Assembly: GCA_001244265.2 (NCBI GenBank)
Contig: CDLV01000006.1
Location: forward strand, 806,001-870,000
Length of the DNA stretch: 64,000 bases
Origin: Microbotryum violaceum
Lineage: Eukaryota
Reading direction: 5' to 3'
Shown in pieces: positions 8,971-31,400 of the stretch. Position numbers and translations under genes: made by a program. The notes under the pieces were generated by a model. That model searched no databases. It worked only from the letters and a program-made list of their open reading frames with translations, and was not told where the DNA came from. The stretch's first letter is position 1. Every line of letters starts with the position of its first letter.

Positions 8971-8974
8971 CTGC

Positions 8975-9330: not shown

Positions 9331-9570
9331 ATAAAACTAAGTGTGTGTTTTTAAGAAAAACAGACAAAAAAAAGAAAATAAAAAACTGTTCGAAGTGATG
9401 GGATGTAAAGAATGGGAAATAGAGTCTCCGACGGTCTTAACCAGAAGTATAGTTGTTGACCGTTTTCATCAGTGTCGCCTAAAGATTAGACTATACGATA
9501 TTATGAAAGTATATATTATTACATTGGACTAAAGACCTAATTTGTATAACATAGATGAGACCATAAATGG

Positions 9571-9760
9571 TTTTCTTTATCATTCTCGTATAAATCTAAA
9601 CATTCTTTAATAATAGATTCACTAAATGACACTTTATTATCATGACTTAATTTATCATTACCAAAAGTATTAGCCATGTAATGGTAAACATAACATAAAC
9701 CCTCGGAATTAATTTCTTCAGACTCATTATACTGGATAGAAAAATTATAAAAATTACTTA
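9571..9760 (-). pseudogene. Fragment of plasmid-type single-subunit RNA polymerase
   Basis: YVYHYMANTFGNDKLSHDNKV matches the ANxFG.DKL motif of phage/mitochondrial RNA polymerases. Confidence 0.7.
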
Positions 9761-9819
9761 GTTTGGATAGCTTTTTTACATATATTATCATTAACTATAC
9801 ATAATATTACATTAATTCT

Positions 9820-10090
9820 GTTTTCTTGCATAATCTAGGTATGTTTGATAGATATGTTTTAATACCAGCGTTATACGATTACCTTAATAGTCTTAAAGAT
9901 ATCAAAGTGTTAATTGATGCTGATCATAAATACATTCTTGTTAAAGTAGCTGATAGTAAAGTTAAAATTGAGTTTAAAGACTCATTACGAATTTTACCTA
10001 TGTCCTTAGATCGTTTAGCTTCAACTTACAATATTAAAGGTAAAACTGAAGCTTATGATCCTAAGTGACAAAACTTAGATTTTCATTAAC
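9820..10090 (+). pseudogene. Fragment of protein-primed family B DNA polymerase (linear mitochondrial plasmid type)
   Basis: ExoII-like HNLGMFD and FKDSLRILPMSLDRLA motifs. Frame continues through TGA=W at 10066. Confidence 0.85.
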
Positions 10091-10787
10091 TCCCTGGGAC
10101 TGAAGATTGAATTAGGTTTAAGTTGTACTCTGTCCTGCTTTTTGATTATCTGTCCTGCTTTTTGATTAATCAAAAAAGACAAAAAGAGGAAAAAAAGACA
10201 AAACAGAAAAGGAGGAGGAGTAGTTCCTTCAAATTAATCTTATTTATTTATACATCCTCGCGCGCTTGATGAACGGAATAAACAAAGCTCATTATCCAAT
10301 CATATAAGCGCCTTTTTCATCTTTGATGAAAAGCAGCGGGGCTGTTTTTATAAAAAAGGGCGGGTGCATAAGGCACACTCTGAAATACTCCTGCACCTTT
10401 CTAGCCCAATTAAAATTCTACTATATGCTGGAAAGACACTCTCAAGCTACGACCTTGAGCATCAATAAATAAATATTGAGTGAACCTATTAAACCTAAAG
10501 AAATTGAAAGTTTTAAAAATATAGTAGAGAATCAATTTGCGCCTACAGATGAATGAAAAAATGCTCATCTAATGAATGTTGAGTTATCTTCTGTATGTTC
10601 TGTTGAAAACTTTTCTAAAAATCTAAGTAAAGAATTGTCTAGTTTCTTAAGTGTAGTTTCAGATAATATTCCTGTTTCCTCTTTTGGTTAGTTATAAAAT
10701 GTAGAATGTAAAACAACAATGAGGAATAATACATATTCTTCTTTTAAAATAGCTTTTAACAATAGTAGAAAGGGGGGACTTATTAAT

Positions 10788-10867
10788 TAATAAAATTTAA
10801 TTATGAGGAAACTTATCATAAGTGAGAATAGTCCTGTAGCTTCTGATAGAGCGAATCCTAGAATAGC
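10788..10867 (-). pseudogene. atp9: atp9 (ATP synthase subunit c) C-terminal fragment
   Basis: Translates to AILGFALSEATGLFSLMISFL, the conserved second helix of subunit c. Confidence 0.9.
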
Positions 10868-11459
10868 CTAAGAAAATACCTCCCGACTTGATTTTCTGTA
10901 CTGTTCCAAAATAAGAGAGAAGTAAAGACTATATCATAGACAGAAGTTTATCTATTTTTGGCAAAAGAAGAGGTTAAACTATATCCAACCAATTAATCCT
11001 ATAACATTTCAATTTTATATCTTCTTTTGTATAACCTATTCCTATTTCGAATAAATACAGAGTCGTCGCAATTTAATACTGCCTTAGCTGCAGTAATTGA
11101 GGGATATTCCACAACATTAGGTGGCGTAGCTAAGGTATCTGTCACTCTAATAGGCACTCACCGTTTTTTAGAACCGAATTTAATAGTATTATTTATAAGC
11201 TTTTTGCTAAGGCAAAAAATAAAAATAAAAAATATGCTGTTTTTGTCCAGGACAAAAAAATAAAAATAAGCGCCTTTTTCATCTTTAGTTTTTTTAGACA
11301 AAAAAGGAAAAGCAGCGGGGCTGCTTTTTGCTAAAGCAAAAAAGACGAAGCGCCCAGCTCGGCTGGGCGAGGGCGACGAAAAGAAAAAGAGTCGGGCTAA
11401 GATAAAAAAATCTAAAGTGATGGGAACAAGAGTCGGGCGAGTACAATAATTGTTTACTT

Positions 11460-11685
11460 ATCTACGTAATATGCAAGTACTTCAATTCCGCAGTTTTTGA
11501 CATTATTTTTATGGTTTAACATAATTTTTTTAACTGCTAAAATACAACTTAAGAATTGTACCGGTTCCGCAGCTTTATTCAATCATAAATTTTTGAATTT
11601 TTCTTTATCATTCTCGTATAAATCTAAACATTCTTTAATAATAGATTCACTAAATGACACTTTATTATCATGACTTAATTTATCA
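11460..11685 (-). pseudogene. Second fragment of plasmid-type RNA polymerase, overlapping the 9571-9760 fragment in source sequence
   Basis: DKLSHDNKVSFSESIIKECLDLYENDKEKFKNL(TGA=W)LNKAAEPVQFLSCILAVK, including an EPxQFLxC motif. 11599-11685 repeats 9571-9657. Confidence 0.75.
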
Positions 11686-12489
11686 CTGCGAAACAGGCCT
11701 ACTTCGCACAAAAACACACAATCCAGAGATTTCCGGGGAAAGTCATGGAGCATGTGACAGTCCATTGGACACGCCTCGGTCTGCAGCGCGGGCGGGTGGC
11801 CGTCAACACCGGCGCGCAGCTGGAGACAAGAGGCGGGGTATACCTTCCGCAGGGGCCTCGCTTCCCTGCGGCGTACTCCCAATCTCGGAACGCACACTCG
11901 AGTCCCGTTGTACGTGCAGGTGGTTCCCAATCACCGCAGATACTGGGGAAAGAAGGAGCATGAGGCCCACGACGGTGATGTCATTGGGTGGGACCTCGCT
12001 CGAGTGTGGATGTGTATGGCGGTTCGGTACCCGAGTCACCCGCCGCGCGGCCGCGACTCCGAGCGAGCAGCAAAGCAAGGAGAGGCGAGCCACGCAGGCA
12101 GTTTGTGCCGGCCTTGAACAGGAGATCACGGAGTCGCTCGACCGAAAGAGAAAACAGACCCGGCCCTTGAGAGGAGTGGAAAACTCACGGCGTAGTCCAG
12201 GAGAGGGCCGAGGGGATCCGCTTTCGCTGTGTGTCATCGTGATGTGGCAGAAGCTCGAACCAAGGGCGACGATGCTCGCCGGCGCAAAGAACTCGAGGCT
12301 CCTGGGGAGTACGGAAGCCTATGATGAGGAATGGCAAAAAGAGCGAGAGAAAACAGGTTCAGTATGCTGGCGTTTTTGGGAGACAGTGGAGAAATTGAGA
12401 AAGAGGGAAAGGGGACTTGTGATTATTTTTATTTTTATTTTTTTTATTTTTTTGGTTTTGGTTTGGGTAGGGAGGGAGCGCCGTCTACT

Positions 12490-15400
12490 TCATCGTGCCA
12501 GTCTGAGCTCCAACCTCTCCTTCAGTCCGGCCATCTCCTTGTCCATGCTCGACATCGCTCTGGCGTGGCGATGGAGATCCCAGCGTCGGTTGCTGAGAGT
12601 GTCAAGCGCCAGCGCAATGAAGGCGCGGGTTGGGCGCTTTTTCGAAGCCGGAAGGCGAGCGCGCAGTCGAGGGAGGCCGTGCTCGATCTGAAGTGCCGTG
12701 TAGTCGAGGTCGAGGATCGACACGACCCCCAGCGCGTCGCAGAGAATGGACCTAGCTGCTTGCCAAAACTGAGAAGAGTCAGGGCAATCATGCCAAAAGT
12801 GAGTAAAGTCATCCTCCACCCCTGCCAGGCTGCATGCCTGCACAAGGCAGCAGGCCGAGTCGCCATGCCGCTGCACAAACTGGCGCTTCCGCGTTGGCGT
12901 GAAGTGGTACGCCAGCTTGAAGTGCACCTCGCGCTCGCGGGCCGTGGCGGGCCCGGTGTTGAACCACCCCCAGAAGAGTCGCCTTTCTTTGGGTGTGGCG
13001 AGTGATCCAGGGCGTTGTGTGTCGTCGAAACGTCGATGGTTGATGACGCGTCGAAGTCGCGCAATGGTGTAAGGTCTGTCCAAGCTCAACATTCTCCACT
13101 GATCAGCACGCAAGGGGGCGGAGGGGAGGGAAAGTTTTTGATCAGGCATGCCGACCGGAGTCGCTCTGGGCAAGATGTGCTCGAGGGGACCGCCGGCCCG
13201 GGCTCCAGGTGCTCCAACGACACGAATGACGGGTGGTCGACGTGCGAGGACGGGAACAGGAGGCGGAAGCGGCGGGATGAAGCGATCGCCTGCGACCTGG
13301 ATCCACGCCTGGACTTGATCGCGCTTCCATTGCCACAGGTTGGACAGCTCCGAGCCGTCGCCTTGGGGATGCTTCTCAGGGGTCCAGGGCACCGTTGGAG
13401 CTGCGGGGTATTCGGCTCGCGCATAGATGTCAGCGATGGTGCGTTCGAAACTGAAAAGCTTCGCCAAACGCTTATCCTGCTCCGAGAACACCCGCGAGTC
13501 ATGCAGACCAGGTTGGAGGGGAGAAAGAGAGAGAAAATTGGAGACCGAAAGTTTGGCAGGATCGACGACGGCAGGGTAGCGTTCAGCGACCGAGAGCACC
13601 GCTCGCCAGCGGGGATGTAGCTCCCGGGGTGCGTCGGCGTTCCTCCACGTCCACAGATCCGTAGCAAAGTCAAAGGTTGGAAGCGCTCGCCGGATGGAAC
13701 TCCGAGCCAGCTCGCCCCAAATCGCAGTTGACCCGCCGGCCAGCACGTCCCAAATCCGTACCGAGACTGAATCCACCACATCTTGGATGCTCACGACGCT
13801 GAGACCACCTCGCGCCCGTGCCGTGAAGACGACCGATTGCTTGTAGTCGCTGCGCCGCGGGCCTCCCTTCACAAAGTCAGCAAGCTTGCGCTCGATCGAC
13901 TTGATCACGTCGGATGGCGGGATGTCGGCGGAGAGAGAGTGCAGCACCTTGGAGATGCCGTAGCGGTTAAGATAGAAAGCCCGGGTATGGTGCGTCATCC
14001 ATCGGTCGCGCACCGATAGAATCACTCGATCAACCCTTCGCTCAAGATCATGGAATCCCAGCCTGTTGTTGCCGTCAGGCGCAAACTGGAGACCGATCCA
14101 GGGAAGAGACTCGTCCGGTGCCACGAACGACAGTTTGGACAAGTCCGCGCGATCCCACAACGTCGCGCCCAATGGCATCACCACAGTTTTGTCGGTGTTT
14201 AGACGTCCGTTCGTCGCGAGTCGCCAATCCCGAGCTAACGCCTCGAGCGAAGCAATAGCTTCCGGCCCAGCAACAGCGACGACGGCGTCATCCGCGAACG
14301 CCAAATTGGTGATGCATCGAGTCTGCGGACGATGAGCCAGCTCCGGAAGAGTGATAGTCAGCGCAATGTTGCGTCGACTGAGAGAATCAAGGAAGGGTTG
14401 GAATACCACATCCCAGACAGAAGAAGAGAGAGGATCGCCCTGGCCAAGACCGCACAGGAGTCGCACCGTCTCGGTGAGGAAACCGTTGACAATGTACCGC
14501 GCTGTGGACGTCTCGCCGTTGTAGAGCATCCGCAAGACGCGCTGGAAAGGTTCCGGCGCGCCGAGAGCCTCAAACACCGCAAAGACCCAATCGTGCTCGA
14601 CCATGTCGTAAGCCGAGCTCTGATCCAGGGAGAGGAGCGCTGCTGTCGGGAACTCTGCCCCACGACCCCTAATCTCATCGATCAGGAGCCGCAGATGCAA
14701 AGCCGCGTCCGCTGGTCTTCGCCCCTTGACGAACCCATGCTGTCCGGCCGGAAGAACATCGGGGAGGATCCGGTTCAGACGAGCCACGTAGACCTTGGTG
14801 AAGATCTTGTAGTCGCATTCCCGCAAGGTGATCGGACGATACGATTTGAGGTCGCACCGTGCTGCACCAGGTTTGTTGTGTTTGAACAAGAGGCGCACAT
14901 TGGCCTGGCTCTGTTGTGGAGTAAGGGAGCCTCGAGTAATCAGCTCGTTGTAGGCTCGAGTCAAGAGAGGGGCCCAAAGCAGGGGGCAGGCTCGATACAT
15001 CTCATAGGGGACCCCTGAAGGACCCGGAGATCGACCTTCGTGCGTGGTTCGAATCGCTGCGAGCACCTCGGCCTCGCTGATGGGCTCGGCCAGAATGTCG
15101 ACGTGCGAATTCGAGAAGCGCCGAAGGAAGCGAGCGTCGGAAAGCGGGTCGTCACAAGGTCTTGCTGATCTGATGGGTCCCAAGAGCTCATCCCGCATCG
15201 TCACGACCTGTTCCGGATCCTTCGCTTCGACAAGGTAGTGCTGCTGGAAATGAGAATGGGTGTGTTCGAGCGCGCGCTCAATGTCAGTGGTGAGCTCGCC
15301 ATCAGCGAGCCGGATACTCTGAAACTTCACATCGCGGGACCGAGCAGCCAGTTTGGCATGTACCGGACGACTGAGACGTTCCTCGGATGCAATCTCGGGA

Positions 15401-16530
15401 ACGTGCGCCCTGATCCGGGACTGCCTTGCTCGCTCGTTCACAAGCTTGGAGAGAGCGTCGTGGGTGTTCGTCCAGTCGATAATATCGAAGGGGCTTAGCA
15501 CCCGACGAGACTCAATGTCCTGCAGTCGAGATACCAGCATCATCTCGAGGGCGTTGCGCTCCCGAAACAGACGCCGAGACAGCTCGAGAGCTTGGACCCG
15601 AGACTCCGAGAGTACGCGCTGAAGGTCCGCGACCGGATCCCCAGACGGCGCCTGCTCAAGGAGAGGAGTGACGGACTCCTTAAACTCGGCGTGTTTGAAG
15701 GTCGACGAGTTGATGCGGGTCAGAAAATGCGCCGCCTGGGGAAGGCAGAGCTCCTCTTCGACCTCGGCACCACTTGCGCGCAGCCTAAATGTGACCATAA
15801 CCGGTCGATGATCCGACATGGGTCGAGAGATATTGTACAGAGTAGAAGCAGAAACGATCCGTCGCTCGTGTCGCCGCTGCACCAGAACAAAGTCGATGCG
15901 CGCGCGCGAAATGAGCTGGCCATCCTTGCTGAGATGCGGGCGCGTGGTCGCCGGCGACAGTGGGTGCATGAGCCGAATGGCATCCGTGTACGCCCCGTCA
16001 AGCCGAGACATAAGCACAGGCCAGTGGTGGGTGTTCGGGCGGTCCACCTGTTGCGCTCGATCCACCGCGGGAATAGGGCAGTCGTTCAGATCGCCCGCGA
16101 TGAACCGAATGTGAGAGGAGACGGTCGCCCGAAAGTGAAGGGAGGTGAAGAAGAGGAGGCGCTCGGCGGGTTGAACCGGAGCGTAGATATTGTTGAGTTC
16201 GACGACGTCCGTCGAACCCCGCACATCGAAGGTGGTCACGAGTAAGCGCCCGCCAAGAGACTGACGCGTGCGACGATGACCACCGAGAAGAGGAGAAGAG
16301 CTTGGAATCAAAGTGAGGCAGTGTTGAGAAAAGTAGGCCTCGCCCTGGTGGGACTGGGCGTACTCGTGGCGTATGTGAGGTTGCCGTGCTTTAGGAACAT
16401 TATGTTCCTGGAGAAGGATAGCAGAAGGGGGAGGTGTGAGCGAAGTGATATACGAAAGAAGCCGACGACGTCGTTCAGGGGTATTGAAGCCCCTGTTGAC
16501 GTTCCAGGTCATGATGATGAAGTCAATCAT
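12490..16530 (-). CDS. LINE ORF2: APE-type endonuclease, reverse transcriptase and C-terminal Cys/His domain (1346 aa, uninterrupted)
   Basis: TWNVNRG, LLQE, GDLND, RIDF, SDH (endonuclease); SPGPSG, YRPITL, QHGF, GLGQGDPLS, FADD (RT); C..C...HFWHDC. Confidence 0.95.
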   Translation of the reverse strand: MIDFIIMTWNVNRGFNTPERRRRLLSYITSLTPPPSAILLQEHNVPKARQPHIRHEYAQSHQGEAYFSQHCLTLIPSSSPLLGGHRRTRQSLGGRLLVTTFDVRGSTDVVELNNIYAPVQPAERLLFFTSLHFRATVSSHIRFIAGDLNDCPIPAVDRAQQVDRPNTHHWPVLMSRLDGAYTDAIRLMHPLSPATTRPHLSKDGQLISRARIDFVLVQRRHERRIVSASTLYNISRPMSDHRPVMVTFRLRASGAEVEEELCLPQAAHFLTRINSSTFKHAEFKESVTPLLEQAPSGDPVADLQRVLSESRVQALELSRRLFRERNALEMMLVSRLQDIESRRVLSPFDIIDWTNTHDALSKLVNERARQSRIRAHVPEIASEERLSRPVHAKLAARSRDVKFQSIRLADGELTTDIERALEHTHSHFQQHYLVEAKDPEQVVTMRDELLGPIRSARPCDDPLSDARFLRRFSNSHVDILAEPISEAEVLAAIRTTHEGRSPGPSGVPYEMYRACPLLWAPLLTRAYNELITRGSLTPQQSQANVRLLFKHNKPGAARCDLKSYRPITLRECDYKIFTKVYVARLNRILPDVLPAGQHGFVKGRRPADAALHLRLLIDEIRGRGAEFPTAALLSLDQSSAYDMVEHDWVFAVFEALGAPEPFQRVLRMLYNGETSTARYIVNGFLTETVRLLCGLGQGDPLSSSVWDVVFQPFLDSLSRRNIALTITLPELAHRPQTRCITNLAFADDAVVAVAGPEAIASLEALARDWRLATNGRLNTDKTVVMPLGATLWDRADLSKLSFVAPDESLPWIGLQFAPDGNNRLGFHDLERRVDRVILSVRDRWMTHHTRAFYLNRYGISKVLHSLSADIPPSDVIKSIERKLADFVKGGPRRSDYKQSVVFTARARGGLSVVSIQDVVDSVSVRIWDVLAGGSTAIWGELARSSIRRALPTFDFATDLWTWRNADAPRELHPRWRAVLSVAERYPAVVDPAKLSVSNFLSLSPLQPGLHDSRVFSEQDKRLAKLFSFERTIADIYARAEYPAAPTVPWTPEKHPQGDGSELSNLWQWKRDQVQAWIQVAGDRFIPPLPPPVPVLARRPPVIRVVGAPGARAGGPLEHILPRATPVGMPDQKLSLPSAPLRADQWRMLSLDRPYTIARLRRVINHRRFDDTQRPGSLATPKERRLFWGWFNTGPATAREREVHFKLAYHFTPTRKRQFVQRHGDSACCLVQACSLAGVEDDFTHFWHDCPDSSQFWQAARSILCDALGVVSILDLDYTALQIEHGLPRLRARLPASKKRPTRAFIALALDTLSNRRWDLHRHARAMSSMDKEMAGLKERLELRLAR

Positions 16531-19343
16531 TACGATTGCGCCTTCGTTGCAGCAGCAGCTCCCTTGATGGACAACATAGGTCCGAATGTGGGTGAGGGGA
16601 GCGGGTCCGCAGCAGTCGATTCGTTCCAGTCCGATGTGCGCGCAACGCTGGTGAGACGCTGGATACGCTCGGACCGGCGAAGACCCTGGGAACTTCCTTT
16701 GTCCACCTCCTGCTTGGGCTCGGGCTCGGGATCAAACACTGGACCTGGAGACGGCGAAGGCATCCAACCGGTTACAGACGGGGTGCGGTCCAACTCGGTG
16801 ATCTCATCGTACAGACCAGCATCCTGTTTGCGCTCGCGGTCCGACACACGATTCATCCAGTCGTCGGGAAGGCCGTCCATATCAAGCTGATGGTGACTGG
16901 CCGATCGGGACCGCGTCAGCTCAGGGGTCGTCGAAACAACCACAGGCACAGTGCCCGTCTCGGCCGACTGCGATTCCCCTTCTTCCGCGTCACTCGTCTC
17001 CGTGTGTTCCTCCTGGCTCCCCTCCGCTCCGCGGTCCTACAGATCCGACAGATCCGAAGGCTCCAACGGCGGCACCTCCTGCTGTTGTTCCAGCTGTGCC
17101 TCGACTACGCTCATCGCGTCCTCGTCGTCCTCGAGAGCCTGAGCGGGCTCCTCCTGCGCCTCTTCGGCCACGTCGCCGGCCAGACTTGCGAATGGGTTCG
17201 CGGCGACGATGAAACCGCGAGGGGCGGATGCTGTGGGTGTAGAGCTTTGTGAACGAGTGGGGTAGACTCGTGGTGAGTTGTTAGTGTCCCTTGAGGGAGA
17301 TGCGTTCTTCTTTGAACGCTTGAACGCGACAGGAGACATTGGGGGAGAGGGAGAGGCTACATCACTGCGTTGTTTTTGGGGGGTCGAGGTTTGCTCGATG
17401 TTGCTTTGGGGCTCGGCCTGGGGCCTTTGGTTGTTGTTTTTCTTCTGGGCGGCCTGCTGACGCTGGACCGCCTTTTGGACGCAGCTGTCGATGTGGCCTA
17501 CGAAGCCGCATCGGCGACAAGAAGCTTCGGACTCGAAGTCGTGTCGAAGTGGCGTGACTTGGGCGAGTCGTCCCCGGAGGTCGATCCTCGTCGGGAGAAT
17601 TTGTCGAAGCTGGGCTCCCTGATTCTTGAAGAGGTCGTCGTTGTCGAACCTGACGATGGCTGAGTAGTTGCCTCGAGCGACCAAATAGGAGTCCTGTACA
17701 ACGTGGAGGGGCTGCTGGAGTTGCAGCAAAGAGCAGCTGTGGCCGCCGGCGGTGATCTGTGCGACGAGACCTTGCAGCTTCGTCCAAAGGAGGTCGGTCG
17801 TGTAATCGACGTCGGGGCTGATCACGAAACGCAACTCGACGACATTCTTGACGAAAGCCAGGCGTTTGCGGACTTGGACAGGCGAGCGTTTCCACTCGAT
17901 CTTGGTCGCCGCTTCATGCACCTTGTCAAGAGCCTCCACGCTGGCGCATCGCACGACGAACTTGAAACGGGTGTTACCGTTGATCTGGACCGCCTCCGGG
18001 GTGACCCCATGGATGACCGGTGCATACTTGGCTAGCTCGGGTGGGAGGACCACTCCGGCGGGAAGGTTGAAGCATAGGGATGTGTCCGGCGATAACGTGC
18101 GGAGCACCTTGGAGTACGCGTCCGCCTTCTCGCGCTCACTAGCGACACCTTTCGACCCCCCAAAAACAACGCAGTGATGTAGCCTCTCCCTCTCCCCAAT
18201 GTCTCCTGTCGCGTTCAAGCGTTCAAAGAAGAACGCATCTCCCTCAAGGGACACTAACAACTCACCACGAGTCTACCCCACTCGTTCACAAAGCTCTACA
18301 CCCACAGCATCCGCCCCTCGCGGTTTCATCGTCGCCGCGAACCCATTCGCAAGTCTGGCCGGCGACGTGGCCGAAGAGGCGCAGGAGGAGCCCGCTCAGG
18401 CTCTCGAGGACGACGAGGACGCGATGAGCGTAGTCGAGGCACAGCTGGAACAACAGCAGGAGGTGCCGCCGTTGGAGCCTTCGGATCTGTCGGATCTGTA
18501 GGACCGCGGAGCGGAGGGGAGCCAGGAGGAACACACGGAGACGAGTGACGCGGAAGAAGGGGAATCGCAGTCGGCCGAGACGGGCACTGTGCCTGTGGTT
18601 GTTTCGACGACCCCTGAGCTGACGCGGTCCCGATCGGCCAGTCACCATCAGCTTGATATGGACGGCCTTCCCGACGACTGGATGAATCGTGTGTCGGACC
18701 GCGAGCGCAAACAGGATGCTGGTCTGTACGATGAGATCACCGAGTTGGACCGCACCCCGTCTGTAACCGGTTGGATGCCTTCGCCGTCTCCAGGTCCAGT
18801 GTTTGATCCCGAGCCCGAGCCCAAGCAGGAGGTGGACAAAGGAAGTTCCCAGGGTCTTCGCCGGTCCGAGCGTATCCAGCGTCTCACCAGCGTTGCGCGC
18901 ACATCGGACTGGAACGAATCGACTGCTGCGGACCCGCTCCCCTCACCCACATTCGGACCTATGTTGTCCATCAAGGGAGCTGCTGCTGCAACGAAGGCGC
19001 AATCGTAATGATTGACTTCATCATCATGACCTGGAACGTCAACAGGGGCTTCAATACCCCTGAACGACGTCGTCGGCTTCTTTCGTATATCACTTCGCTC
19101 ACACCTCCCCCTTCTGCTATCCTTCTCCAGGAACATAATGTTCCTAAAGCACGGCAACCTCACATACGCCACGAGTACGCCCAGTCCCACCAGGGCGAGG
19201 CCTACTTTTCGGTACAGCGCTAGGCCGGGGTTCGCTGGTCCCTCGGCGGCATCGGCCTCCGCCCCCGCGTCACCACGTGGTTGTCCCGTCGCTGCCGGAT
19301 CCGGAGGGCCGCGGCCCGGATCAGGCGGTGCCTGGTCAGACAT
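16530..19343 (-). pseudogene. Family A ORF1 (nucleic-acid chaperone), disrupted
   Basis: N-terminus at 19343-19211, then the inverted duplication, then body from 18151 with knuckle CRRCGFVGHIDSC. In-frame TAG at 17037-17039. Terminal TAA overlaps the ORF2 ATG. Confidence 0.8.
18152..19210 (+). repeat. Inverted duplication of 16328-17387
   Basis: Reverse complement of 16328-17387, matching by eye except for one base in a C-run. The ORF track gives mirror-image peptides. Confidence 0.95.
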
Positions 19344-19416
19344 CGGGTCGATAGCTGGTGTAGCAGTTGATGTATTCGATGTATTGACGTTTGCCGAGGT
19401 AGAGTAGCGTGATTGG

Positions 19417-19456
19417 GATGAAAGATGAAAGATGAAAGATGAAAGATGAAAGATGA
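19417..19456. repeat. (GATGAAA)5 GATGA heptamer repeat at the 5' end of element A
   Basis: Read directly. Confidence 0.95.
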
Positions 19457-19978
19457 TTTTTTTTTTTGTATGAAACTCATCGCTAATTTGCAAGACGAGA
19501 AACCCCCCTACGGAACTAAAGGTGATGTTGCCCAGTATGCACGTTGATGACCACAACCGCCGCTCGATGCGTTGTAACTAGCAGAACAAACCAACCCGAT
19601 ACATCCGAGTTCAAGTCCCCCCCACCCACGGTTGCTCCCTCCCAGAGACGAATGAAAGGAAGATTGAAGATAATACACGGGGAATCTGGAAACGATGGAA
19701 GAAATGTTGGTGGTGGTACATGTGTTGTACAGGTGAATCCGATCATAGTTGTACAGTTGAACCTTCTTCGATCTTTTGACTTCAGACCCCCCTGAGACTG
19801 CCATACTCCTTGAGGCCCTTAATTCTTTGAGACGCGTCGAACAAGGCCTCCGATGGCACAAACATCCCGCTCAATCCGAATGATTCACGTGGTCCAAAAG
19901 GGGGAATGTAACCCCTGCGACCGCAGCAATCACATACCCCTTGTACCCGTCTGCGCTGGATCTCCACCGCGGAGTCCA
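19457..19978 (-). mobile_element. Family C copy 2 (3' fragment, A11 tail), flanked by AGATGA(T)n on both sides
   Basis: Near-identical to 8378-8897. AGATGA at 19451-19456 and 19978-19983, each followed by a T-run. Confidence 0.78.
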
Positions 19979-19983
19979 GATGA

Positions 19984-22900
19984 TTTTTTTTTTTTGACTG
20001 GGGCTCATAAATTGCAATCCTTCGGGTTGGATGGGACCGCTACAAAAAGAGCTAAAGGAGGTTATAAAGCAACGACAGCAAGCAGTTGGGTGAAAGTCAA
20101 ACCCCTGCGCGCAAACAGCGCTGCGCAGATCAAAGCCCGCCGAGCACCTAACGCGGACTCCAACGGGCGGTGAGTACTGCTGCCGCTTCACGCCCCAAGA
20201 GCGGGAGCAAAGATACTCGAAAACCAGGCAAGAGCGCCTAGAGAAAGAAGGGGGAGAGTATACAGAAAGTCACGACTGGGGATACGCAGAACCAGGAATA
20301 CTAAGACAGAGAGGAGGGGAACACACCCGAGGGGCCAAGTTAGGGGGTCGAAGCCGGAGGTAGAGGTCCCCAGGGACTAACAGGCCGCAGCCAAGCCCCA
20401 GCTACTCGTCACCCCGACAGCGCCTGATGTCCTCCCTTGGCTGAATCTCGAGTGCTGGCTGTTGAGCCGTCGGGGCCGAGATAAAAGCGATCCAGTACAA
20501 CGAAACGAGCCTCGCCTTGACGCGAGGATATTGACCAGAAACGAGCGACCTTCCTTCCCGAGCCATGCCGTAGATCTTGACCAACGCGAACGAACGAACC
20601 ATTCAACGGAATCCAACACACGGCTTAGGAGTAAAAGGAGAAGTGGCTGAAGCGTAGTCAACAACCGAGCAACAGGAACGAGAAGAGGAAGGGAAGGGAA
20701 AAAAGGGGGGAAAGGAGAGGGAAAAACTTCACAAAGCCTCCAACGCAAAGACAATCGACCTGGCTTGCCGATCCATCCAAGAACAAAAAACCGCTACTGC
20801 GCAAAGTAGAGAGAGAGAGGGAGAGGTGCGCAGCCTTCCACTGCGCAACAAGTTCCAAGACAGTCAGCTTCTAAAAGAGGAGTCGACCTCCGAAAAAGAA
20901 GGGAGGAAAGGAGGGGAGGAAAATGGGAAGGAAGGACTTAACTCGGTCATCACACCTCCCAATCTCGAGCCCCAGGCACAAAACCCGCTCGAGAGAGAAA
21001 ATCTCGCTCGAACGCTCTGAGTGCACTGGGGAGCGAGGGAGGGGCCACGACCTTGTCCAGTTCGAACCGCTGATGAACGCGCCAGCGGAGCAGGTGCAGC
21101 CGCTGGAAGCCGATCGCGCAGGCCAGCCGAACCCACATCCATCTCGAGGTCGTTCTCCCACGACCCCGCAAAAGGGGGAGCCCCATAGTCAGCTGCTCCG
21201 GAGTGAACGTCGACGGATCGACGTCGGTATCCTCGATGCCCAGCTTGTCGAACAGAATGCGAAGCACCCCACCCCAGAAGCTGGTCGAGTACGCGCACTC
21301 GAAGAAGTAGTGCGACACCGTCTCGATGACCGCTGCATCGTTGCCGCAGAACAGACACGTCGGCGAAGAGGCATGACCCTGAGTATGCTGCCTCTTGCGC
21401 GTCGGCGTCACGTCGTACATGAGCCGCCAGTGGGTGTCCTGCTCCACAGCAGACGCGAACCGGTCATGAAGCCATCTCCAGAAGCGCTTCCTATCGCTCT
21501 GAGAAGTCCCATCACGGAAACGCTTGACACGATCCTCCCTCCCTGGGAACCGAACCACGTTCACAAGCCGACGAAGCTTGCGAATAGTGAACGGTCGGGT
21601 GAGCCCAAAGAAGTTGAAGCACCGAGGACGGGGAGCCTCCTTGAGAGGTATCCGAGCAGGTCGCAACGCGGTCTTGGGCAGCAAGGCTTTCGCCTTGAGC
21701 ATTTGACCCACGCGCGACCACACGTGCTCGTGCTGTAGGGCGGGTTCCTTAGAGTGCTGCCAGAACCCGCGTCGATGACCAACCAGAGCCCAGCCCTTCC
21801 CTTCGTCCCTCCAGTACAGGTCCGCGATCTGCGCAAACTTCGCCACTGCGTCCGCATCGTCATATGCGTGCTTGGCACCTTCAGCATAGAGTGAAGGGAG
21901 GCGAGGCGGAAGCGAGAGCAATTCGGGGAGCGTAAGGAGTTCGGACTTGATGGTTGGAACTGTGACCCTGGCAGCTGCAACGACTGCCCCCAGCGCGTCG
22001 AGTCGCGATACAGCTTCTCGACCCGAGCCGTGCTGCTGAAGAACCCCCACGGACTGAAATCGCGGGTCGCAGCGACGAGGGACCTCCAGCTCTCGCGAGC
22101 TAGGGGCGCCCAGATCGCCTCGTTCGAGCCCGCCACAGCATCCCAAAATCGAAGCGCCACCGAATGAACGATGTCGCCGATTGAAATCAAGCCCAAGCCA
22201 CCGTCCTCCCGAGCCTGGAACACGAAATCGCGAGCGACGGTATTTCGCCCTGCTCCTCCCCAAACAAAATCCGTAAGTGCTGTCTCCGCCGCCTTAATGA
22301 ACCATTGAGGCGGTATGTCGAAGGACAGCACGTGGAGGACCGTCGAGATGATGTGAGCGTTGGCATAGAAGACCTTCCCACTCGGCGAAAGTGTCCGGTC
22401 TCCAGCGGCGCGGGTCTTGGCCTTGATCCTGTCAAGAACATGGGTCCAAAACAGTTTCGAGTCACCGTGGCGAAAGAAGGCATAGCCGCACCACTTGAAG
22501 CTCTCCCCCTCCTGCACCGTTGGCAGCGCCTGCGCAGTCTCGTCCCGAAGCCAGTTCGGTCCGAGTGGTAGCACCAGCGTCTTGTCCGTGTTGGTCTTCC
22601 CGTTGGTTGCCTCGTACCACGTCTGCGACAGCGTTTCCAGCTTCGACAATGCCGCCGGTGACTCCACTACCACCACAGCATCGTCGGCAAACGCCAGATG
22701 CGTAAGCTGCGCACGCGGCCCCCTGGCCACACCTTCTGCAGGTCGAGCGCGATCCCGCGCCGAACGAGGGCGTCGAGGAAGGGCTGGAACGTGATGTTCC
22801 AAACCGGGCACGAGAGGGGATCCCCCTGACCGAGACCACACAGCAACCGCACCAACTCCGTGGGGAACCCATTGATGAGGTAGCGCACCCCCAGAGTCTC

Positions 22901-25475
22901 GGGATCGTACAGAGCGCGCAGCAGGGAAATGAAACGCTCACCAAAGCCAAAGGCCTCGAAGACGTCGAAGATCCATGCGTGATCGACCCGATCGTACGCG
23001 CTCTGCTGATCCAAGGACAAGAGGGCGCCCTCGGGGAAAACTTCAGTGCCTAGCGACTTGAGTTTTTCGAGAAGGAGAGTGAGATGACTTCCCGCGTCTG
23101 CTGAACGTCTTGATGGCATGAACCCGTGTTGCGCCGGCGGCAAAAGCTCGCCGAGCACCCCATTGAGTCGCGCCACCAAGACCTTGCTGAGGACCTTGTA
23201 GGTCGTCTCGCGCAGTGTGATCGGTCGATATGCCCCAGTGATTTCAGATTGGCCCCCGGTTTGTTCTTGGGCAAAAGCCGCACCAGCCCCTCTGCCAAGG
23301 ACGCCGTCATTTTACCCCCTCCCAAATCGAGTTGAACAGGTCCAACAGCTTGGGAGCGAAGTAGGTTGGCAGCGCCTTGAAGAGCTCGTACGGAATGCCC
23401 GAGGGCCCCGGTGATCGCCCCGAATCCGTCTTCTTCAACGCCGCTTCAACCTCGAGGAGGGTGAAGGGCTCGTCAAGCGCCACTCTCGCTTGACGAGGCA
23501 GCCGACGACCGAACGTAGGGTCCGAGCGGTCGTCATCGTAGCATTTCGCCGCGCGAATAGGGTCGAGCAGGGACCGACGTGGGTTCGTCGGGTCGCCACG
23601 AGCTGGGTCCGGCGTGAAGAGCGACTGTGCGTGCCGTGAAGCAATACCCAGCGCCTCCTGCATGTCAACGGTCTCGGTGCCATCCACATCCTCCAGCGAG
23701 ACGATGCTCGTCTGGCGACTCCGGCGGTTGAGACGCGTGCGAATGCTTGCCGATTGACCTTCCCTCGAGTCGACTGACGGCACATGCGCACGAATGCGCA
23801 GCCACTGAGCCTCCTTTACCGCCAACTGATCCAACTGCGACTTGGCGAGAGCATACGCATCGCGCTCGGCCTCATTCATATGCTCACCGCGTGCCTCCAG
23901 CGCCTCCATGACGGATTGGTTCTCGGCCCGCAGTCGGCGCATGTCGGCACGAGTCGAGCGGTATCGTGCATGGCCAGCGACTGCAACCGCCCGCAGAGCG
24001 GCGTCATAGACGTCGCCGAGCGGAGCGGTCCCCTCGAGCCTTCGATAGACCTCGTCGACGACCCCGGGAATCGATGCGACAAAGTCTTGATCGTCAAAGA
24101 CCGTTGGGTTGAGCCTCGAAATGAAATCGCTCGTAGAGGGAAGAGAAAGGGGGGGTTCGGCATCAGCGTTCGACGTAGGCAATGCGAAAGTCGCAACTAC
24201 AGGTCTGTGGTCCGAGCAGGGCGCATCGAAAAGTGTGGAAGCGCTCAACAACCGGTTTGCCCAACTGCGCTGGACAAGGATATAATCGATCCGCGACCAC
24301 GAGCAGATTTCTCGTTTGTCCCCCTACCAAGGTAGTGAGGGCGAGTGAATGCCGGGGTGATGGGATGGAGTTGTCGGATCGTGTCGAGTGGGTTGAATGC
24401 GATCTTTGACAGCAAGGTCTGCCAGTGCGATACAGGAGTCCAAGCGCGATCGGTGATGGCCACTCGGTCGACCGATACATCCGGACAATCATTGAGATCG
24501 CCGGCCAAGATCCGAAGAGTCTTGGGCCCCGGAGCGGTGAAGTGCAGGAGCCCGTAGAAGTCGCGACGTTCTTCCCCCTTGACCGGCGCATACATGTTGA
24601 TGAGCTCGATATCGAGCTCCTCAAGACGAAACACCGAGCGCAGGATCCGACCGTCGAATTGAGGGGCTTCTGCAAACACGACCGGGGTAGAGGAGAGGAG
24701 GCGGCCCGCCAGAGGTGAGCCATCGGGTATAAGGGTAAGGACATGAGGTGCGAAACGAATACAAGCTCCTGGCCAAGCACTCTCGAAGCCTTCGCGCAAC
24801 GCGTTGTAGCTGAGGTGGTGCTCTTGCAGGAGAATGGCCGCAGGGGCCGGCCGAAGGGTTTTGAGATAGCGGATGATTTTGACTTGGTTGACTGCGTTCT
24901 TGATCGATCGGACGTTGAACGTCAACACGGTGAGGGACTCAATCATGAATAAATTGGATCAGCGCCGCCCCCCTCGAATTCGGTCATCTCGGACCTGTGA
25001 CCCCCTGAACTGTTGCCCCTGAGTCGTCACCCCCTGATGCACCGTGGATCATGGCGGATCCCGCCCGGGTGACACGTCGGTTGCCGGGTGCCGAGCTCGA
25101 ACGAAGGCGTCGAGGACTCGTCGAGGCTATCGAGTTCGTCGCGGTTGCCGATGGTTCCGACGTGCCACCGGACAAAGGCGATGCCGGAGCAGAAGTAGAA
25201 GGCGAAGGAGAGGTCGGGGTCGAAACGGGCGCCGCTGTCGTCGTCTGCGTCTCCTTTGTTGGGCCCGTGGTCGCACGGGTCAACGTCTCTTTCCCAGTGT
25301 CGCCGCCCTCCGGTTCGGTCGAAGCGACCGATTCGCCGTCGTCGTCGTCGTCGTCACCGTCGCCGTCGTTCGCATCGTCCTTGTTGCCGGTCGCTGCACC
25401 TGCGGGGTTAGCACGAGGTCCCAGCTGGATCATGTTCGTGCCAGAGGCACGAGAGTTCAATGCGGCAGGCCCAGA
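19984..25475 (-). mobile_element. L1/Tx1-type LINE, family B copy 2: ORF1 C-terminus, frameshifted ORF2, 3'UTR, A12 tail; 5'-truncated
   Basis: T12 at 19984-19995. ORF1 tail at 24984-25475. ORF2 motifs are spread over consecutive frames. Confidence 0.92.
20950..24946 (-). pseudogene. Family B ORF2 (endonuclease-RT), about five frameshifts
   Basis: TFNVRS/LLQE/GDLND, SDHRPV, SPGPSG, QHGF, GLGQGDPLS, FADD and CLFC...HYFFEC in successive overlapping ORFs. Confidence 0.9.
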
Positions 25476-25753
25476 TTTTTTTTTTTTTTGTAGAAAACGT
25501 TCATCATATTGCCCCCAGTTCCTGTTCCCCCTGTTTTGGCCTACGGAAAAACTAGATGGAAGACTACGATGATAACACAAACCGCCCGCAAAAGTGCGAG
25601 AAACGAGCCAAGTCCACCAATCCGAGATTCGGATTCAAATGCCCTAGCCAAGCGGTTGCTCCCCCCAGGAGACTAATGAGAGAGAGAAAGAGAGACGAAG
25701 AGAAAAAGAAAGAAAAGAAATGTACTAACGACAGAAGGCCCACCCCACAGCCA
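25476..25753 (-). mobile_element. Family D copy 1 (short 3' fragment, A14 tail)
   Basis: T14 at 25476-25489. Near-identical to the first ~275 bp of the adjacent copy. Shares colinear motifs with family C. Confidence 0.72.
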
Positions 25754-25754
25754 A

Positions 25755-26130
25755 TTTTTTTTTTTTGTAGAAAACGTTCATCATATTGCCCCCAGTTCCT
25801 GTTCCCCCTGTTTTGGCCTACGGAAAAACTAGATGGAAGACTACGATGATAACACAAACCGCCCGCAAAAGTGCGAGAAACGAGCCAAGTCCACCAATCC
25901 GAGATTCGGATTCAAATGCCCTAGCCAAGCGGTTGCTCCCCCCCGGAGACTAATGAGAGAGAGAAAGAGAGATGAAGAGAAAAAGAAAGAAAAGAAATGT
26001 ACTAACGACAGAAGGCCCACCCCACAGCCACTTCCCACTCGGTCGAGACGAAGACAAGAGCACGACTGCGCAACCACCACGACCCTCGACGCTCCAAGTC
26101 TCTGCTCAGTCACAACAAGACGCGGTGAAG
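25755..26130 (-). mobile_element. Family D copy 2 (3' fragment, A12 tail); right boundary approximate
   Basis: T12 at 25755-25766. Tandem with copy 1 and extends about 100 bp further. Confidence 0.68.
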
Positions 26131-26184
26131 AGAAATCGTGACAAAATTTGTGTTTTTTGCGATAGATAGCCCTTATACTGCATC

Positions 26185-26255
26185 GCGCCGGTGGGTTAGG
26201 GGTATACTTGGACATTGCCATTGTCTAGACCTGGGTTCGAGTCCCAGTCGGCGCA
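26185..26255 (+). tRNA. tRNA-Gly(GCC), intronless
   Basis: Acceptor GCGCCGG/TCGGCGC, anticodon arm GGACA-TTGCCAT-TGTCT, T arm CTGGG-TTCGAGT-CCCAG, discriminator A, T5 terminator at 26263-26267. Confidence 0.92.
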
Positions 26256-26684
26256 AGTTCTCTTTTTGCCTGATTCTCTTTCCCTCACCGTCGGACTACT
26301 CGGGGTAGCCAATGACCCAGCCCCACCAGAAGTATTCTCCTTTGAGAAAAGGACAAAAATGCCCTCGAAAGATAACGAAAGGACGAAAATGCCCTCGCTT
26401 CTTTTCATGGGACAGAAATGCCCTTCTCTAAAGGACCAAAATGCCCTCGGATTCTCGAACTTCTGTAGTACTTGATATATCAGCTCATAACCAAGAGGGT
26501 AGCTTCTTGTAGTCGTTGTGATCGGCCGTATATTCAGAATCCCCAGAGATGCCGTGAGAATTCATATATCACGGTTGCGAAGTCAGGGCCCTATCACGAC
26601 TGAAGCGAGTCCAAGTCGAAAGCGAGCGATGAGTATATACCGAGTGAATTCCATATGAAAAAGGCCAGCAGTAGTAGCATTGAC

Positions 26685-27273
26685 TAAGCTCAACTAAGCC
26701 CTCCCTCTGGGAGGGGCTTACGAGTTATCGACGCGCTTGGCCCAGATGCCCTCCGAAATTTCAGGGCCATTTTGGGGTGGTTTTCTGTAACTTGGCAAAT
26801 ACTTACATTCATGCAAAAGCGAGGGACCCTATTTTTCTTTATGCTCCAAAAATGACATACCCCTAGTGGCGAGAGCTTTCATAAGCTGTGGGTGGAGCTA
26901 CAGCGATCCGAAGTCTGCGATTTCGGTCGATCGGGCCTCATATGGTCCGAGCGCATCGTGTAATTGGCGCTCTCATCATCGGCGAGCCTCGGACTGGACT
27001 ACGACTGGTCCGTGCGCCGACCTGCGTCTCGTTCGGAATCATTTGATTCAAGCTGCTGTAGCGAGATGATCAAGCGTTCCTAGACTTCAAGCTTCGGTGA
27101 AGCCTCATCAATAGAGATAGAGTAAAGATGTATTCCTCCAGTTTTCAGATAGCACCAATATATGCCATGCTACAGCAAGGGGGCACTTTTCAGGGCCAAA
27201 ATTTCGGAGGGCAACTGGGCCAAACGCGCCGATAACTCACAAGCCCCTCCCAAAGGGAGGGGCGTCGAGCTTA
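26685..27273. mobile_element. Nested 589-bp TIR element (MITE-like) with 9-bp TSD
   Basis: Imperfect ~80 bp TIRs TAAGCTC...GAGCTTA. TSD AGCATTGAC at 26676-26684 and 27274-27282. Confidence 0.85.
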
Positions 27274-27589
27274 AGCATTGACAGTCTTGACGCCTTATGC
27301 TCAGATTCGAATGGTCTATCTATCTATCGCATGTAACTCGGTTGTGTCCGGGGCCTTTGCAGAGACCACAGATCGTGTCGCGCTTGGACCTCTCGTCCGC
27401 ACCCCGGAACCTGCGTTTGATCGGACGTCGTATATGCTTGGAGAGATGTGACGGAATGATAATGACACCCTCTTCTTCGCCATGACCTCATGGCGCTCAC
27501 GAGGAAGACGATGCAGCTTCCATTCGGCCCGAGATGGAACAGGTTAAAGCGGTGTCGCGTAAGTCTGCTCTTGCTATCGCCAGTGTGCA

Positions 27590-27830
27590 GCAGCGATCGG
27601 TGACTGTGGGCTTCATTCAAGACAATGATGGTCCAAACGCTGCATTCTCCTTTGGAGATAGCAGTGGCAGAGAAGGAGCACGGAGGATCTTGGACACTCT
27701 TGCTCACGACGCGTGTCAGACTTGCCAATGTTGAACTGAAACTGGCGATCAAGCGCATATTGATGGCCCGCATCTGTGAGCTCCTTCTTTTCGTAGAGAC
27801 TTTTCCCCTCCCTGAAAAAACGTTCCATTG
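27590..27830 (-). pseudogene. Remnant of MULE transposase N-terminal DNA-binding domain
   Basis: REGKSLYEKKELTDAGHQYALDRQFQFNIGKSDTRR then, after a frame change, CSFSATAISKGECSVWTIIVLNEAHSH. Resembles the MuDR/FAR1-type C..C...W....HxH domain. Confidence 0.55.
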
Positions 27831-28430
27831 CCGAAAGTCGGTGGTGACTTCGATGTAGAGGCCAGAATGCGGAAGGTGGCCAACCTCGATTCGCGAAGTA
27901 CTCGCGCGCCTCGACGCGTCGAAGATCGATGAGGACCCCTGACTTTGCGACCGTGATATATGAATTCTCACGGCATCTCTGGGGATTCTGAGTATACGTG
28001 ATCAAAACGACTACAATAAGCTACCCTCTTGGTTATGAGCTGATATATCAAGTACTACAGAAGTCGAGAATCCGAGGGCATTTTGGTCCTTTAGAGAAGG
28101 GCATTTCTGTCCCATGAAAAGAAGCGAGGGCATTTTCGTCCTTTCGATATCTTTCGAAGGCATTTTTGTCCTTTTCTCTTCTCCTTTTTCTCTTCATTGG
28201 TCATGCGGTAATACTCGAGCCATATGGGTGGGGAAGTTAGGTAGGAGTCTTGCGGATCAAATTTCAACCTTCAAATCATTTTTTTTTTTGTAGCAAGACA
28301 CATAGGAGAAACCCAAATGGACAACCGGGACACATGAGGCGGAACCAAAAACAGACAGAGTGTATATGAGGATATTCTAGAAGAAAGGACATTTTCCCCT
28401 CAAGGGTATGCATGCCTGACCAATCCCGGT

Positions 28431-31400
28431 TTACGAGTGTTGGATAACGGCGACCAAGTCACCCTGGGCGATACTGTCGCTCGGTTGAACGGAAACGCGT
28501 TGGACCTTGCCGCTGACGGGCGCTGAGACGATTTGCTCTATCTTCATCGCCGAAAGGACGCAGATAGGGTCACCGGCCTTGACCTCCTGGCCCTCGTGCA
28601 CTCGGACCTCGACGACGACGGCCGACATGGGCGAGCCGACTGATCCGGGCTCGTTCGTCGCCTTCTCGCGGTGCACGGTCTCGATCGCGGCACTTCTGTC
28701 CTCGACCTGGACCGCACGCAGCTCACCGTTCAACTCGAACAGGATGTCGCGGGTGCCCGACGAGGTGTCGACGGGCGAGACGGCGATCAGCTTGACGATG
28801 AGCGTCTTGCCCTTCTCCATAGCGATGTGAATTTCCTTACCGACCGGGGGCTTGCCGAGGAAGAAACGCGTCGGCAGGACCGACAAGTCACCGTACTTGG
28901 TCGTGAATTCCTTAAACTCCTCAAATACCTTGGGGTACATGCAGTACGACAGGACGTCAGTCGACGTGATCGTCGAGCCGTACTTCTCGATGAGCTTGGC
29001 GCGCGTGCCCTCAAAGTCGTAAGGTTCCATGTCCTTGCCCGGTCGCTCGTCGATGCGCTTCTTATCGCGAATGATCTTGGATCTCAGCGGTTCCGGGAAA
29101 CCGCCCGTAGGCTGACCGAGGTAGCCCTGGAAGAACTCGACAACCGAGTTGGGGAAGTCGAGCTTGTCGGCTTGGTCGATGACGTCCTGTCGCGTCAGCT
29201 TATTGGCGACGAGGAACTGGGCGAAATCACCGACGACCTTGGACGATGGGGTAACCTTGACAATGTCACCGCACAGGAGGTTGGCATCGATGTAGGACTT
29301 GACGACCTCTTTCCATCGACCGGTCAAGCCGAGTTGGGTCGATTGGAACATCAAGTTCGTGTATTGTCCTCCGGGCATTTCGTGGTCGAACACACCCGAG
29401 TCGGACGCTCGGACGTTGGCGTCGAAGCAGCTGTACAGCGTGCGAACCGAAGACCAGTAGAGGTTAAGCGCCTGAATGTTCTCGTGCGAGATACCGGTGC
29501 CGAGGTTTGTTTGCTCGAGCGCCGAGCAGACGGCACCCATCGAAGGCTGCGAGGTCGTGCCGGACATGGAATCAATGGCGACGTCAACGACATCTGCACC
29601 CGCGGCGGCGCAGGCGAGCATTGACGAAACCGAAATACCGGCCGTGTCGTGCGAGTGGACGTGGATCGGCAAGTCGGGGAATTTCTTTCGGAGCGCACCA
29701 ACAAGGATCGTTGCGGCCTCGGGCTTGAGGATACCGGCCATCTTCAAGCAAAAGCTCGGGGGTCAGTCATGTCGGTACGCGGGGAAAAAACATCGCAGAT
29801 GTCGGAACTCACATCTTTGATGGCAAGCACGTGAATGCCGCAGTCGACGAGCTCCTGGGCGAATTGAAGGTAGTACTCGAGCGTGTACTTGGAGTGCTTT
29901 TTCGGGTTCGCGACGTCACCCGTGTAGCAGATGGCGGCTTCCACAACACCACCGGCCTTCTTGGCCGCGTCGATACCGAGCCGCATATTGTCGATGTAGT
30001 TAAGCGAGTCAAAGACACGGAAAATATCGAGACCGTTCTCCACGGCCTTGCGCGAGAACTCGTAGATGGCGTTGTCGGGGTACGAGGTGTACCCGACAGC
30101 GTTGGCACCACGGACAAGGGCCTGGAAAGGAATATTGGGGACGAGCTTGCGCAACGAGCGCAGGCGCTCCCACGGGTCCTCGTACAAGAATCGCATCGCG
30201 ACGTCAAAGGTCGCGCCTCCCCAGCACTCGAGGGCGTACGCATTCGACAGGGCATGCGAGGTCTCCTTGGCGATGTTGGCCATGTCGACCGTACGCAAAC
30301 GAGTCGCGATGAGCGACTGGTGGGCATCGCGCCACGTCGTGTCCATGATGAGGACACCGGGATAGGCGCGAACGGCCTTAGCGAAGGCCTCGGGACCTTG
30401 TTCGACGATGATGTTGCGCCATCCGGTCGTGCAGGGCTCGCTCGTCTCGAGGGCTTTGGTCTCGTCCTTGGGGTCGACGATGGCCGGGATCGGGATCTCT
30501 TCGTTCAAGCCGGGCTCGCCCATTTGACCCTTGATCGTCGAGCCGTTGACGACGAGGTCGCCGAGGTAGGCCAAGAACTTTTGGGCGCGGTTCTGCGACG
30601 TCACGAGCTGGAAGAGCTGGGGCGTATCGTCGATGAAGGTCGTCCACGTGTTGTTGGTGATGAAGGACTCGTGCGACAGAACACGGAACAAGAAGGGAAT
30701 GTTGGTTTTGACACCACGAATGCGGAACTCGACGAGTGCTCGGAGCATCTTGCGGCGAGCGATCTCGAACGTCGCACCACGGACCGTGCACTTGACGAGC
30801 AGGGAGTCGTAGTGAGGGGTGATTTGCGCACCAGCAAATCCGGATGAGGCATCGAGACGGACGCCGTTCCCGCCGGCTGATCGGTACACTTCAATCTTGC
30901 CTGTGTCGGGCTGGAAGTTGGCGGCCGGGTCCTCGGTCGTGATGCGGCACTGAATGGCGTACCCACGTTTGGTGATGGTGTCTTGCGTGAGACCGAGCTC
31001 GGGGAGCGAGGCACCGGCGGCGATCTGAATTTGCGCGGCGACGATATCGATACCGGTGATTTCCTCGGTAATGGTGTGCTCGACCTGAATTCGGGCTGGG
31101 GATGACGACGCGGACAGATTGCGAGTGAGGTCAATATCCAAAGTCCGGAGTTGCAGCGTGAGATAAAGCTGAGGGCAACTCACGGTTGATCTCGATAAAG
31201 TAATGTCCCTTTGAGTCGACCAAGAATTCGCAGGTACCGGCGTTGCGATACTTGACAGCCTTGGCGATCTTGACGGCGTCGGCGAGGAGTTGAGTTCGGA
31301 GCTCCTCCGAGATGTTGCTCGCGGGGGCGAGCTCGACAACCTTTTGATGCCTACGTTGAACGGAACAATCACGTTCGAACAGGTGCACAATGTTGCCATG

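Follow-up and report, generated by a model that had tools for sequence, protein, structure and literature searches.

A head-to-tail train of L1-like LINEs ending 54 bp upstream of a tRNA-Gly gene in Microbotryum violaceum

The locus: a transposon nest between convergent genes

The analyzed stretch of Microbotryum violaceum DNA (64 kb, referred to below as the window) is gene-dense and contains a single nest of transposable elements. To the left of the nest, a RhoGEF/CNH gene on the plus strand ends near position 5896. On the right, a minus-strand gene for pyruvate carboxylase reaches its end at 28431, followed by genes for a hexosaminidase, a CCT chaperonin, a mitochondrial carrier and other proteins. 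Once the repeats are subtracted, approximately 1.1 kb remains between the two convergent stop codons, and this spacer includes a tRNA-Gly gene. Such a 3'-3' spacer is the place where insertions are least likely to harm a gene. The only nest in the window is located at its only tRNA.

The tRNA-Gly(GCC) gene occupies positions 26185–26255 on the plus strand according to both ARAGORN and Rfam (RF00005, 53.4 bits against a gathering score of 29), in agreement with the mature start at 26185 given in the first-pass annotation. A T5 terminator follows on the plus strand at 26264–26268, 8 nt past the gene end. At the Rfam gathering score, no other Pol III-type gene was found in the 64-kb window. Upstream, the spacer of 54 bp (plus strand, 26131–26184; its limits were set by the boundary of the nearest LINE copy and the sequence) contains an AT-rich block at about -43 to -28 from the tRNA start, which we infer to be the TFIIIB/TBP-type zone. 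An insertion nearer to the tRNA than about -50 would probably disrupt this block and disable the gene, so that surviving insertions are expected to stop near this distance.

On the other side of the tRNA gene, 88 bp downstream, lies an element of 1.8 kb (26344–28178) with 245-bp terminal inverted repeats, which is multi-copy as judged by depth and belongs to the same nest but not to the LINE train. Its terminal repeats contain short internal tandem motifs, and no Pfam match was obtained for its 225-aa ORF. Deletion variants of this element were seen in other genomes, with joints 26626>27301 and 26675>27274.

Composition and orientation of the LINE train

The remainder of the nest, between 6517 and 26130, is a train of seven units, all of which (7/7) end in poly(A) and lie on the minus strand. 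The claim that all element 5' ends face the tRNA therefore stood, the one exception being an inverted segment of 1,060 bp inside the full-length copy. The units are L1-like LINEs of four related Microbotryum families, designated A, B, C and E: an ORF2 with endonuclease and RT domains, a separate ORF1, poly(A) and frequent 5' truncation were all found. The name L1-like rests on this domain set and on PMC3956500, according to which L1-clade elements occur in Microbotryum violaceum. No Pfam family was matched in ORF1.

The left edge of the nest is formed by the T-run (6517–6528) of B', a 5'-truncated family-B copy on the minus strand (6517–8365; self-comparison, tblastn and T-run), which is 85–88% identical to the second family-B copy, B, i.e., differs from it by 12–15%. 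The T-run of C' (minus strand, 8378–8975), the longer of two copies of family C, comes after the truncated end of B'. C' is interrupted by an AT-rich insert (8976–11685, 27–32% GC), and a GC-rich stretch without LINE protein matches, which may be the continuation of C', fills positions 11686–12424 up to the tail of A. Read with the mitochondrial code, 8976–11685 holds ORF fragments resembling, by eye, a mitochondrial-plasmid B-type DNA polymerase, and a perfect 87-bp direct repeat is present at 9571–9657 and 11599–11685. This insert probably originated from an organelle and was captured by the nest.

Unit A (minus strand, 12425–19456) is a full-length LINE of the P0001 family, with an ORF1 start at 19343 and an intact ORF2 of 1,413 aa (12490–16731) in which Pfam recognized the AP-endonuclease (PF03372) and RT (PF00078) domains. 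This ORF2 is 97% identical to a Microbotryum silenes-dioicae protein. Seventy-five of the 87 protein matches bear Microbotryum names, and the next one is a Sporobolomyces protein with 32% identity. Within A, the region around the ORF1/ORF2 junction is present a second time in inverted form: 18152–19211 is the reverse complement of 16328–17387 (1,060 bp, 99.9% identity), and this duplicate interrupts ORF1 between residues ~44 and ~78. The inverted junction 17402>18152 was present in three of the four public runs at about 5–27 times the unique depth, which makes it a trait shared by a multi-copy subfamily and not an assembly error. Gene model P0001 appears to splice this duplicate out.

Next to A lies C (minus strand, 19457–19983, defined by self-comparison), which belongs to a third LINE-like family and, being 5'-truncated, retains its 3' part. 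It is 99.4% identical to 8378–8897 in C' (0.6% difference), and it stops at 19976–19978, beyond which C' and other family-C copies continue. Seven nucleotides separate the 5' end of C from the T-run of B. B (minus strand, 19984–25475; tblastn, Pfam and T-run) is a LINE of the P0051/P0054 family, truncated at about residue 382 of ORF1 (P0054), with a 3'UTR of ~950 nt. Its ORF2 (24946–20953) falls into five frame pieces and contains zf-RVT (PF13966) and RVT_1. Multi-copy contigs of other B copies have one extra C at each of the positions 21986, 22718, 23232, 23314 and 25015, and at least two of these sites coincide with frame breaks in ORF2 of B. Each frame break corresponds to the loss of one C from a run of C, which reflects either a genuine mutation or an assembly error in a homopolymer. 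The 5' end of B adjoins the T-run of D1.

The last two units, D1 (minus strand, 25476–25754; self-comparison and T-run) and D2 (minus strand, 25755–26130), are short. Self-comparison showed two adjacent units of 277 nt each, 25478–25754 and 25755–26031, which are 99% alike and open on the plus strand with runs of 14 T and 12 T, respectively. These T-runs at the unit starts make D1 and D2 minus-strand elements with poly(A) at their low-coordinate ends. D1 consists of 263 nt plus a 14-nt poly(A), and its 5' end meets the T-run of D2 with a gap of 0–1 nt. The homology of D2 to other D copies extends beyond the stretch that D1 matches.

To define where D2 ends, contigs of four public runs from three organisms were aligned to window positions 17400–30000, a start that kept the 1,060-bp inverted repeat pair out and left the 6517 edge and the tail of A (12425) outside. 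Contigs from other D copies, present in each of the four runs, leave the window sequence at 26130 (at least eight contigs: at least three in X1, at least two each in X6 and X14, at least one in X11) or at 26127 (at least two: at least one each in X1 and X6). Past these points, they enter one common sequence that is absent from the window. D goes on 5'-ward in other copies, and D2 is therefore truncated at 26130. Among the pieces listed from the four runs, none bridged 26131–26343.

The same boundary was given by L001, a metagenome contig of 12.4 kb with a nearly complete relative of family E. The last 387 nt of its LINE (L001 8636–9022) belong to a 3'UTR that matches window positions 26127 to 25757 at 85%, and the bases just 5' of the D2-matching part are the same shared sequence into which the loose ends of the public runs lead. 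The ORF2 stop of L001 lies ~280 nt further 5', so the shared sequence is 3'UTR as well; the idea that it was the end of the family-E ORF2 was ruled out by L001. Gene model P0007 joins the end of a family-E ORF2 to a D-like peptide and then to a second, 5'-truncated copy. On sequence grounds, D is assigned to LINE family E as the tail of its 3'UTR. D2, which comprises only the last ~376 nt of that 3'UTR with a 12-nt poly(A), is a dead-on-arrival copy, and so is D1 with its 277 nt.

The 5' end of D2 at 26130 ± 3 thus lies 54 bp before the mature tRNA start and in opposite orientation; microhomology gives the distance a range of 51–58 bp. The first-pass annotation had put the end of the train near 26130, about 45–60 bp from the tRNA, and had asked for a boundary defined from other D copies. 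The loose ends in 4/4 runs together with L001 fixed it at 54 bp, and no different boundary emerged. The D2–tRNA feature is real and well defined.

Head-to-tail junctions and relatives outside the window

All five internal junctions of the train consist of a 5' end followed by a T-run, with 0–12 nt between them in four of the five. At the A-to-C junction, where a 7-nt microsatellite adjoins the T-run, the actual 5' end of A is not defined. The microsatellite at the 5' end of A has five copies of the 7-nt unit (19411–19456), and the 5'UTR of the L001 LINE has one with a 6-nt unit (2870–2910); a microsatellite start may be a shared 5'UTR feature of these families. No target-site duplication was found for any unit, the flank of D2 giving only chance-level matches of 4–6 nt with the T-run and nest-left flanks, and no remnants of the tRNA-proximal spacer were found between the units.

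Junctions of this kind are not confined to the window. Contigs of the public runs revealed at least seven further forms in three related genomes, each with a truncated B, C or D piece and, 0–21 letters further on, the T-run of a different unit: 19948>25755, 20063>25477, 19520>19457, 20441>19457, 25574>19458, 25692>19986 and 26124>20001. Their depth was 0.6–2.2 times that of the unique flank in the same run, which fits one or two loci per form better than a multi-copy state. At another such junction, the LINE-LINE model P0007 is a read-through of stacked transposons, not a gene. Three of the 87 protein matches (P0017, P0045 and P0059) fuse LINE domains to LTR-retrotransposon domains, and these LINEs hence also adjoin other transposable elements. 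As LINE-Copia or LINE-retropepsin read-throughs, these three gene models are not genes either.

A scan of metagenomes for relatives of ORF2 yielded four loci, L001–L004, and none was encoded in viral contigs among 35 pattern matches. In L001, ORF1 starts at 2975, ORF2 extends to ~8351, and a 3'UTR of ~660 nt ends in poly(A) at 9013–9022. Its proteins are 80–89% identical to the P0015/P0042 family (family E) over most segments and ~60% identical in ORF1. This LINE splits the gag ORF of a Copia element, with the C-terminal part of gag and the integrase (Pfam) on the minus strand at 2781–259 and the N-terminal part of gag on the minus strand at 9368–9023, and the reading frame resumes across the LINE. 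The insertion has no target-site duplication, and its target has no clear A-tract. No tRNA (ARAGORN; Rfam at E ≤ 0.1) and no other Pol III gene (Rfam E-value search) was detected on the 12.4-kb contig. Of family-E copies with readable flanks beyond the window, none out of one is thus at a tRNA gene, which argues against strict tRNA targeting, although a single copy is too few to decide and its 3'UTR shares only 85% identity with that of the window. The contigs L002–L004 also showed no tRNA, but with 1.4–2.0 kb they are too short to count.

Probable nesting in a tolerated spacer, and the alternatives

In the most likely reading, which we consider moderately probable, the train arose by ordinary head-to-tail nesting of LINEs, and the tolerated spacer that they occupy contains a tRNA gene by coincidence. 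We propose that each new cDNA would have been primed on the T-run/poly(A) end of a resident copy; in an equivalent route, the RT would leave one LINE RNA and resume at the poly(A) end of the following one. Both ways of priming lead to units of the same orientation, each with its 5' end against the poly(A) of the next. The D2 junction at -54 would mark the founding insertion or the final joining, and it may have survived as one that left the AT-rich block and the tRNA gene intact. The nick preference of L1-type elements fits TPRT that starts in a T-run opposite poly(A). Three routes are expected to give such junctions, namely TPRT starting at a T-run that faces an existing poly(A), extension of a free plus-strand 3' end, and RT switching. 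If the units were independent, one orientation in 7/7 would have a chance of 1.6% (2 × 0.5^7). All three routes give one orientation, so that the seven units are not seven independent observations on the tRNA, and with respect to the tRNA they probably are not independent events. As nesting would be a simpler cause of the shared orientation, head-to-tail junctions being common elsewhere, the evidence for a role of the tRNA reduces to one junction, that of D2. Nesting is further supported by the unrelated inverted-repeat element that landed in the same spacer. Against it count the L001 target, which has no obvious poly(A) tract and leaves the T-run preference only putative, the location of the window's sole nest at its sole tRNA, and the position of D2, since -54 in opposite orientation matches the TRE5 window exactly.

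This match is the core of the main alternative, suggested by the first-pass annotation: as in TRE5, one or more of the LINE families would recognize the Pol III complex (TFIIIB/TFIIIC) and nick about 50 bp upstream of the tRNA, successive hits pushing older copies outward. The description of TRE5-A on which it drew (~50 bp upstream, this orientation, contact of ORF1 with TFIIIB) agrees with PMC5911963, which reports insertion 44–54 bp upstream of the tRNA coding start in opposite orientation and binding of ORF1 to TBP, Brf1 and Bdp1. The likeness includes the architecture, that is, two ORFs, the second of which encodes AP-endonuclease, RT and zinc finger domains; all three are present here (PF03372 and PF00078 in A, PF13966 in B), and the same holds for the relatives. 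The shared orientation of 7/7 units also agrees with targeting, and without target-site duplication, as in L001, repeated nicking would likewise produce 5' ends abutting T-runs. The Microbotryum genome is compact (PMC4469406), and it was in compact genomes that dictyostelids repeatedly acquired tRNA targeting (PMC5006619). According to PMC5006619, independent non-LTR lineages reached tRNA genes there, NLTR-B of Polysphondylium pallidum inserting ~50 bp upstream and NLTR-A of Dictyostelium purpureum 2–6 bp upstream, so such targeting can originate convergently. These elements are amoebozoan, and in place of a zinc finger they have RNase H.

How surprising the position of D2 is depends on the definition. 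For the Microbotryum genome, PMC4469406 gives 26.1 Mb, 134 tRNAs, 392 LINE copies and a mean intergenic length of 502 bp, and we applied our own uniform-insertion arithmetic to these inputs. A LINE 5' end within an 11-bp window upstream of any tRNA, in one orientation, is expected ~0.011 times per genome if the whole genome is open to insertion, and ~0.04 times if insertions are restricted to the ~7.35 Mb of intergenic and TE space. Within 150 bp on either side and in either orientation, the expectation rises to ~0.6 and ~2.1, respectively. The strict expectation of 0.01–0.04 counts against the nesting reading. A reader would be more apt to flag a hit under the looser definition, and the coincidence is therefore notable but not compelling. 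Selection against closer insertions further sharpens the coincidence.

Set against targeting, the D2 site is one tRNA junction only, whereas 61% of the tRNA genes of D. discoideum carry a TRE (PMC5006619), and the one other copy examined, L001, is away from any tRNA. The head-to-tail junctions are widespread, with nothing linking them to tRNA genes; the LINE-LTR fusions (3/87 matches) indicate that the LINEs nest in other transposable elements too; and no target remnants were found between the units. The word "tRNA" does not occur in the main text of PMC10502011 on Microbotryum transposable elements, and in that of PMC4469406 it occurs three times, never beside a statement on LINEs. In the main texts of the open-access literature searched, no tRNA-associated LINE came to light for Microbotryum or another fungus, and no fungal LINE counterpart of NLTR-A/NLTR-B. 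Altogether, targeting of the TRE5 kind is unlikely here, and we would give an equally low chance to a real but non-exclusive preference of family E, perhaps shared by its sisters, for sites ~50 bp upstream of tRNA genes in opposite orientation.

Among LTR elements of yeast and LINEs of amoebae, homing to tRNA genes is a known strategy. If targeting were true, family E would be the first LINE in a fungus to home to tRNA genes, a fungal counterpart of TRE5 of independent origin, and the train would represent repeated hits at the same tRNA; Microbotryum would then offer many sequenced sister species for comparison. As it stands, the locus is a well-resolved case of several LINE families stacking head-to-tail in a compact fungal genome, and public gene models such as P0007 and P0001 read through stacks of this kind.

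A fungal parallel to the proposed nesting is Zorro3, an L1-clade element of Candida albicans with a poly(A) tail that integrates at poly-A tracts without target-site duplications (PMC3956500). In the window, all five internal junctions are at T-runs and no target-site duplications were found; PMC3956500, as far as consulted, mentions no multi-family trains for Zorro3, and the target of L001 is not an evident poly-A tract.

Healing of a break is quite unlikely. A break or persistent nick just upstream of the tRNA would have been repaired by endonuclease-independent LINE cDNA synthesis on the free 3' end of the plus strand, with serial template switches in one or a few events, the mode of growth of telomeric LINE arrays in Drosophila. 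Throughout the train, the plus strand indeed reads 5' end, T-run and reverse complement of the next unit, as the product of free-3'-end extension would, and the variable 5' truncations, the presence of several families in one array, and the embedded AT-rich, organelle-like segment that is not a LINE would fit such a repair. In the HeT-A/TART/TAHRE arrays, too, 5' truncation is variable and each poly(A) is joined to the previous 5' end. Those arrays are likewise head-to-tail and built of several specialized LINE families, but they are found at Drosophila telomeres (PMC5537684, PMC13534243), i.e., at chromosome ends, whereas the array of the window is interstitial, with ordinary genes on both sides. 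About 7–8 units and nearly 20 kb, including a 7-kb full-length copy, are also much for a few events, the difference of 12–15% between B and B' against 0.6% between C and C' suggests different ages, and nothing shows that a break occurred.

For D1 and D2 only, a local tandem duplication (by slippage or unequal exchange) or an assembly artefact would explain two adjacent 277-nt units that are 99% alike, and single-base homopolymer differences from other copies hint at some assembly error, but this is very unlikely given that the repeat unit begins exactly at the poly(A), that the tails of 14 and 12 T differ as in two products of retrotransposition, and that similar junctions of a truncated D with a tail exist elsewhere.

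Two further stretches of the window, both outside the nest, end in homopolymer runs. One, 28279–28430, adjoins the pyruvate carboxylase stop, is single-copy, and has an 11-T run at 28279–28289, an end that resembles the tail of D; the other, 54900–55069, has a 13-A run at 55057–55069. No Pol III gene was found within 100 bp of either, the first being more than 2 kb from the tRNA. Each could represent a very short LINE tail or else an ordinary 3' region.
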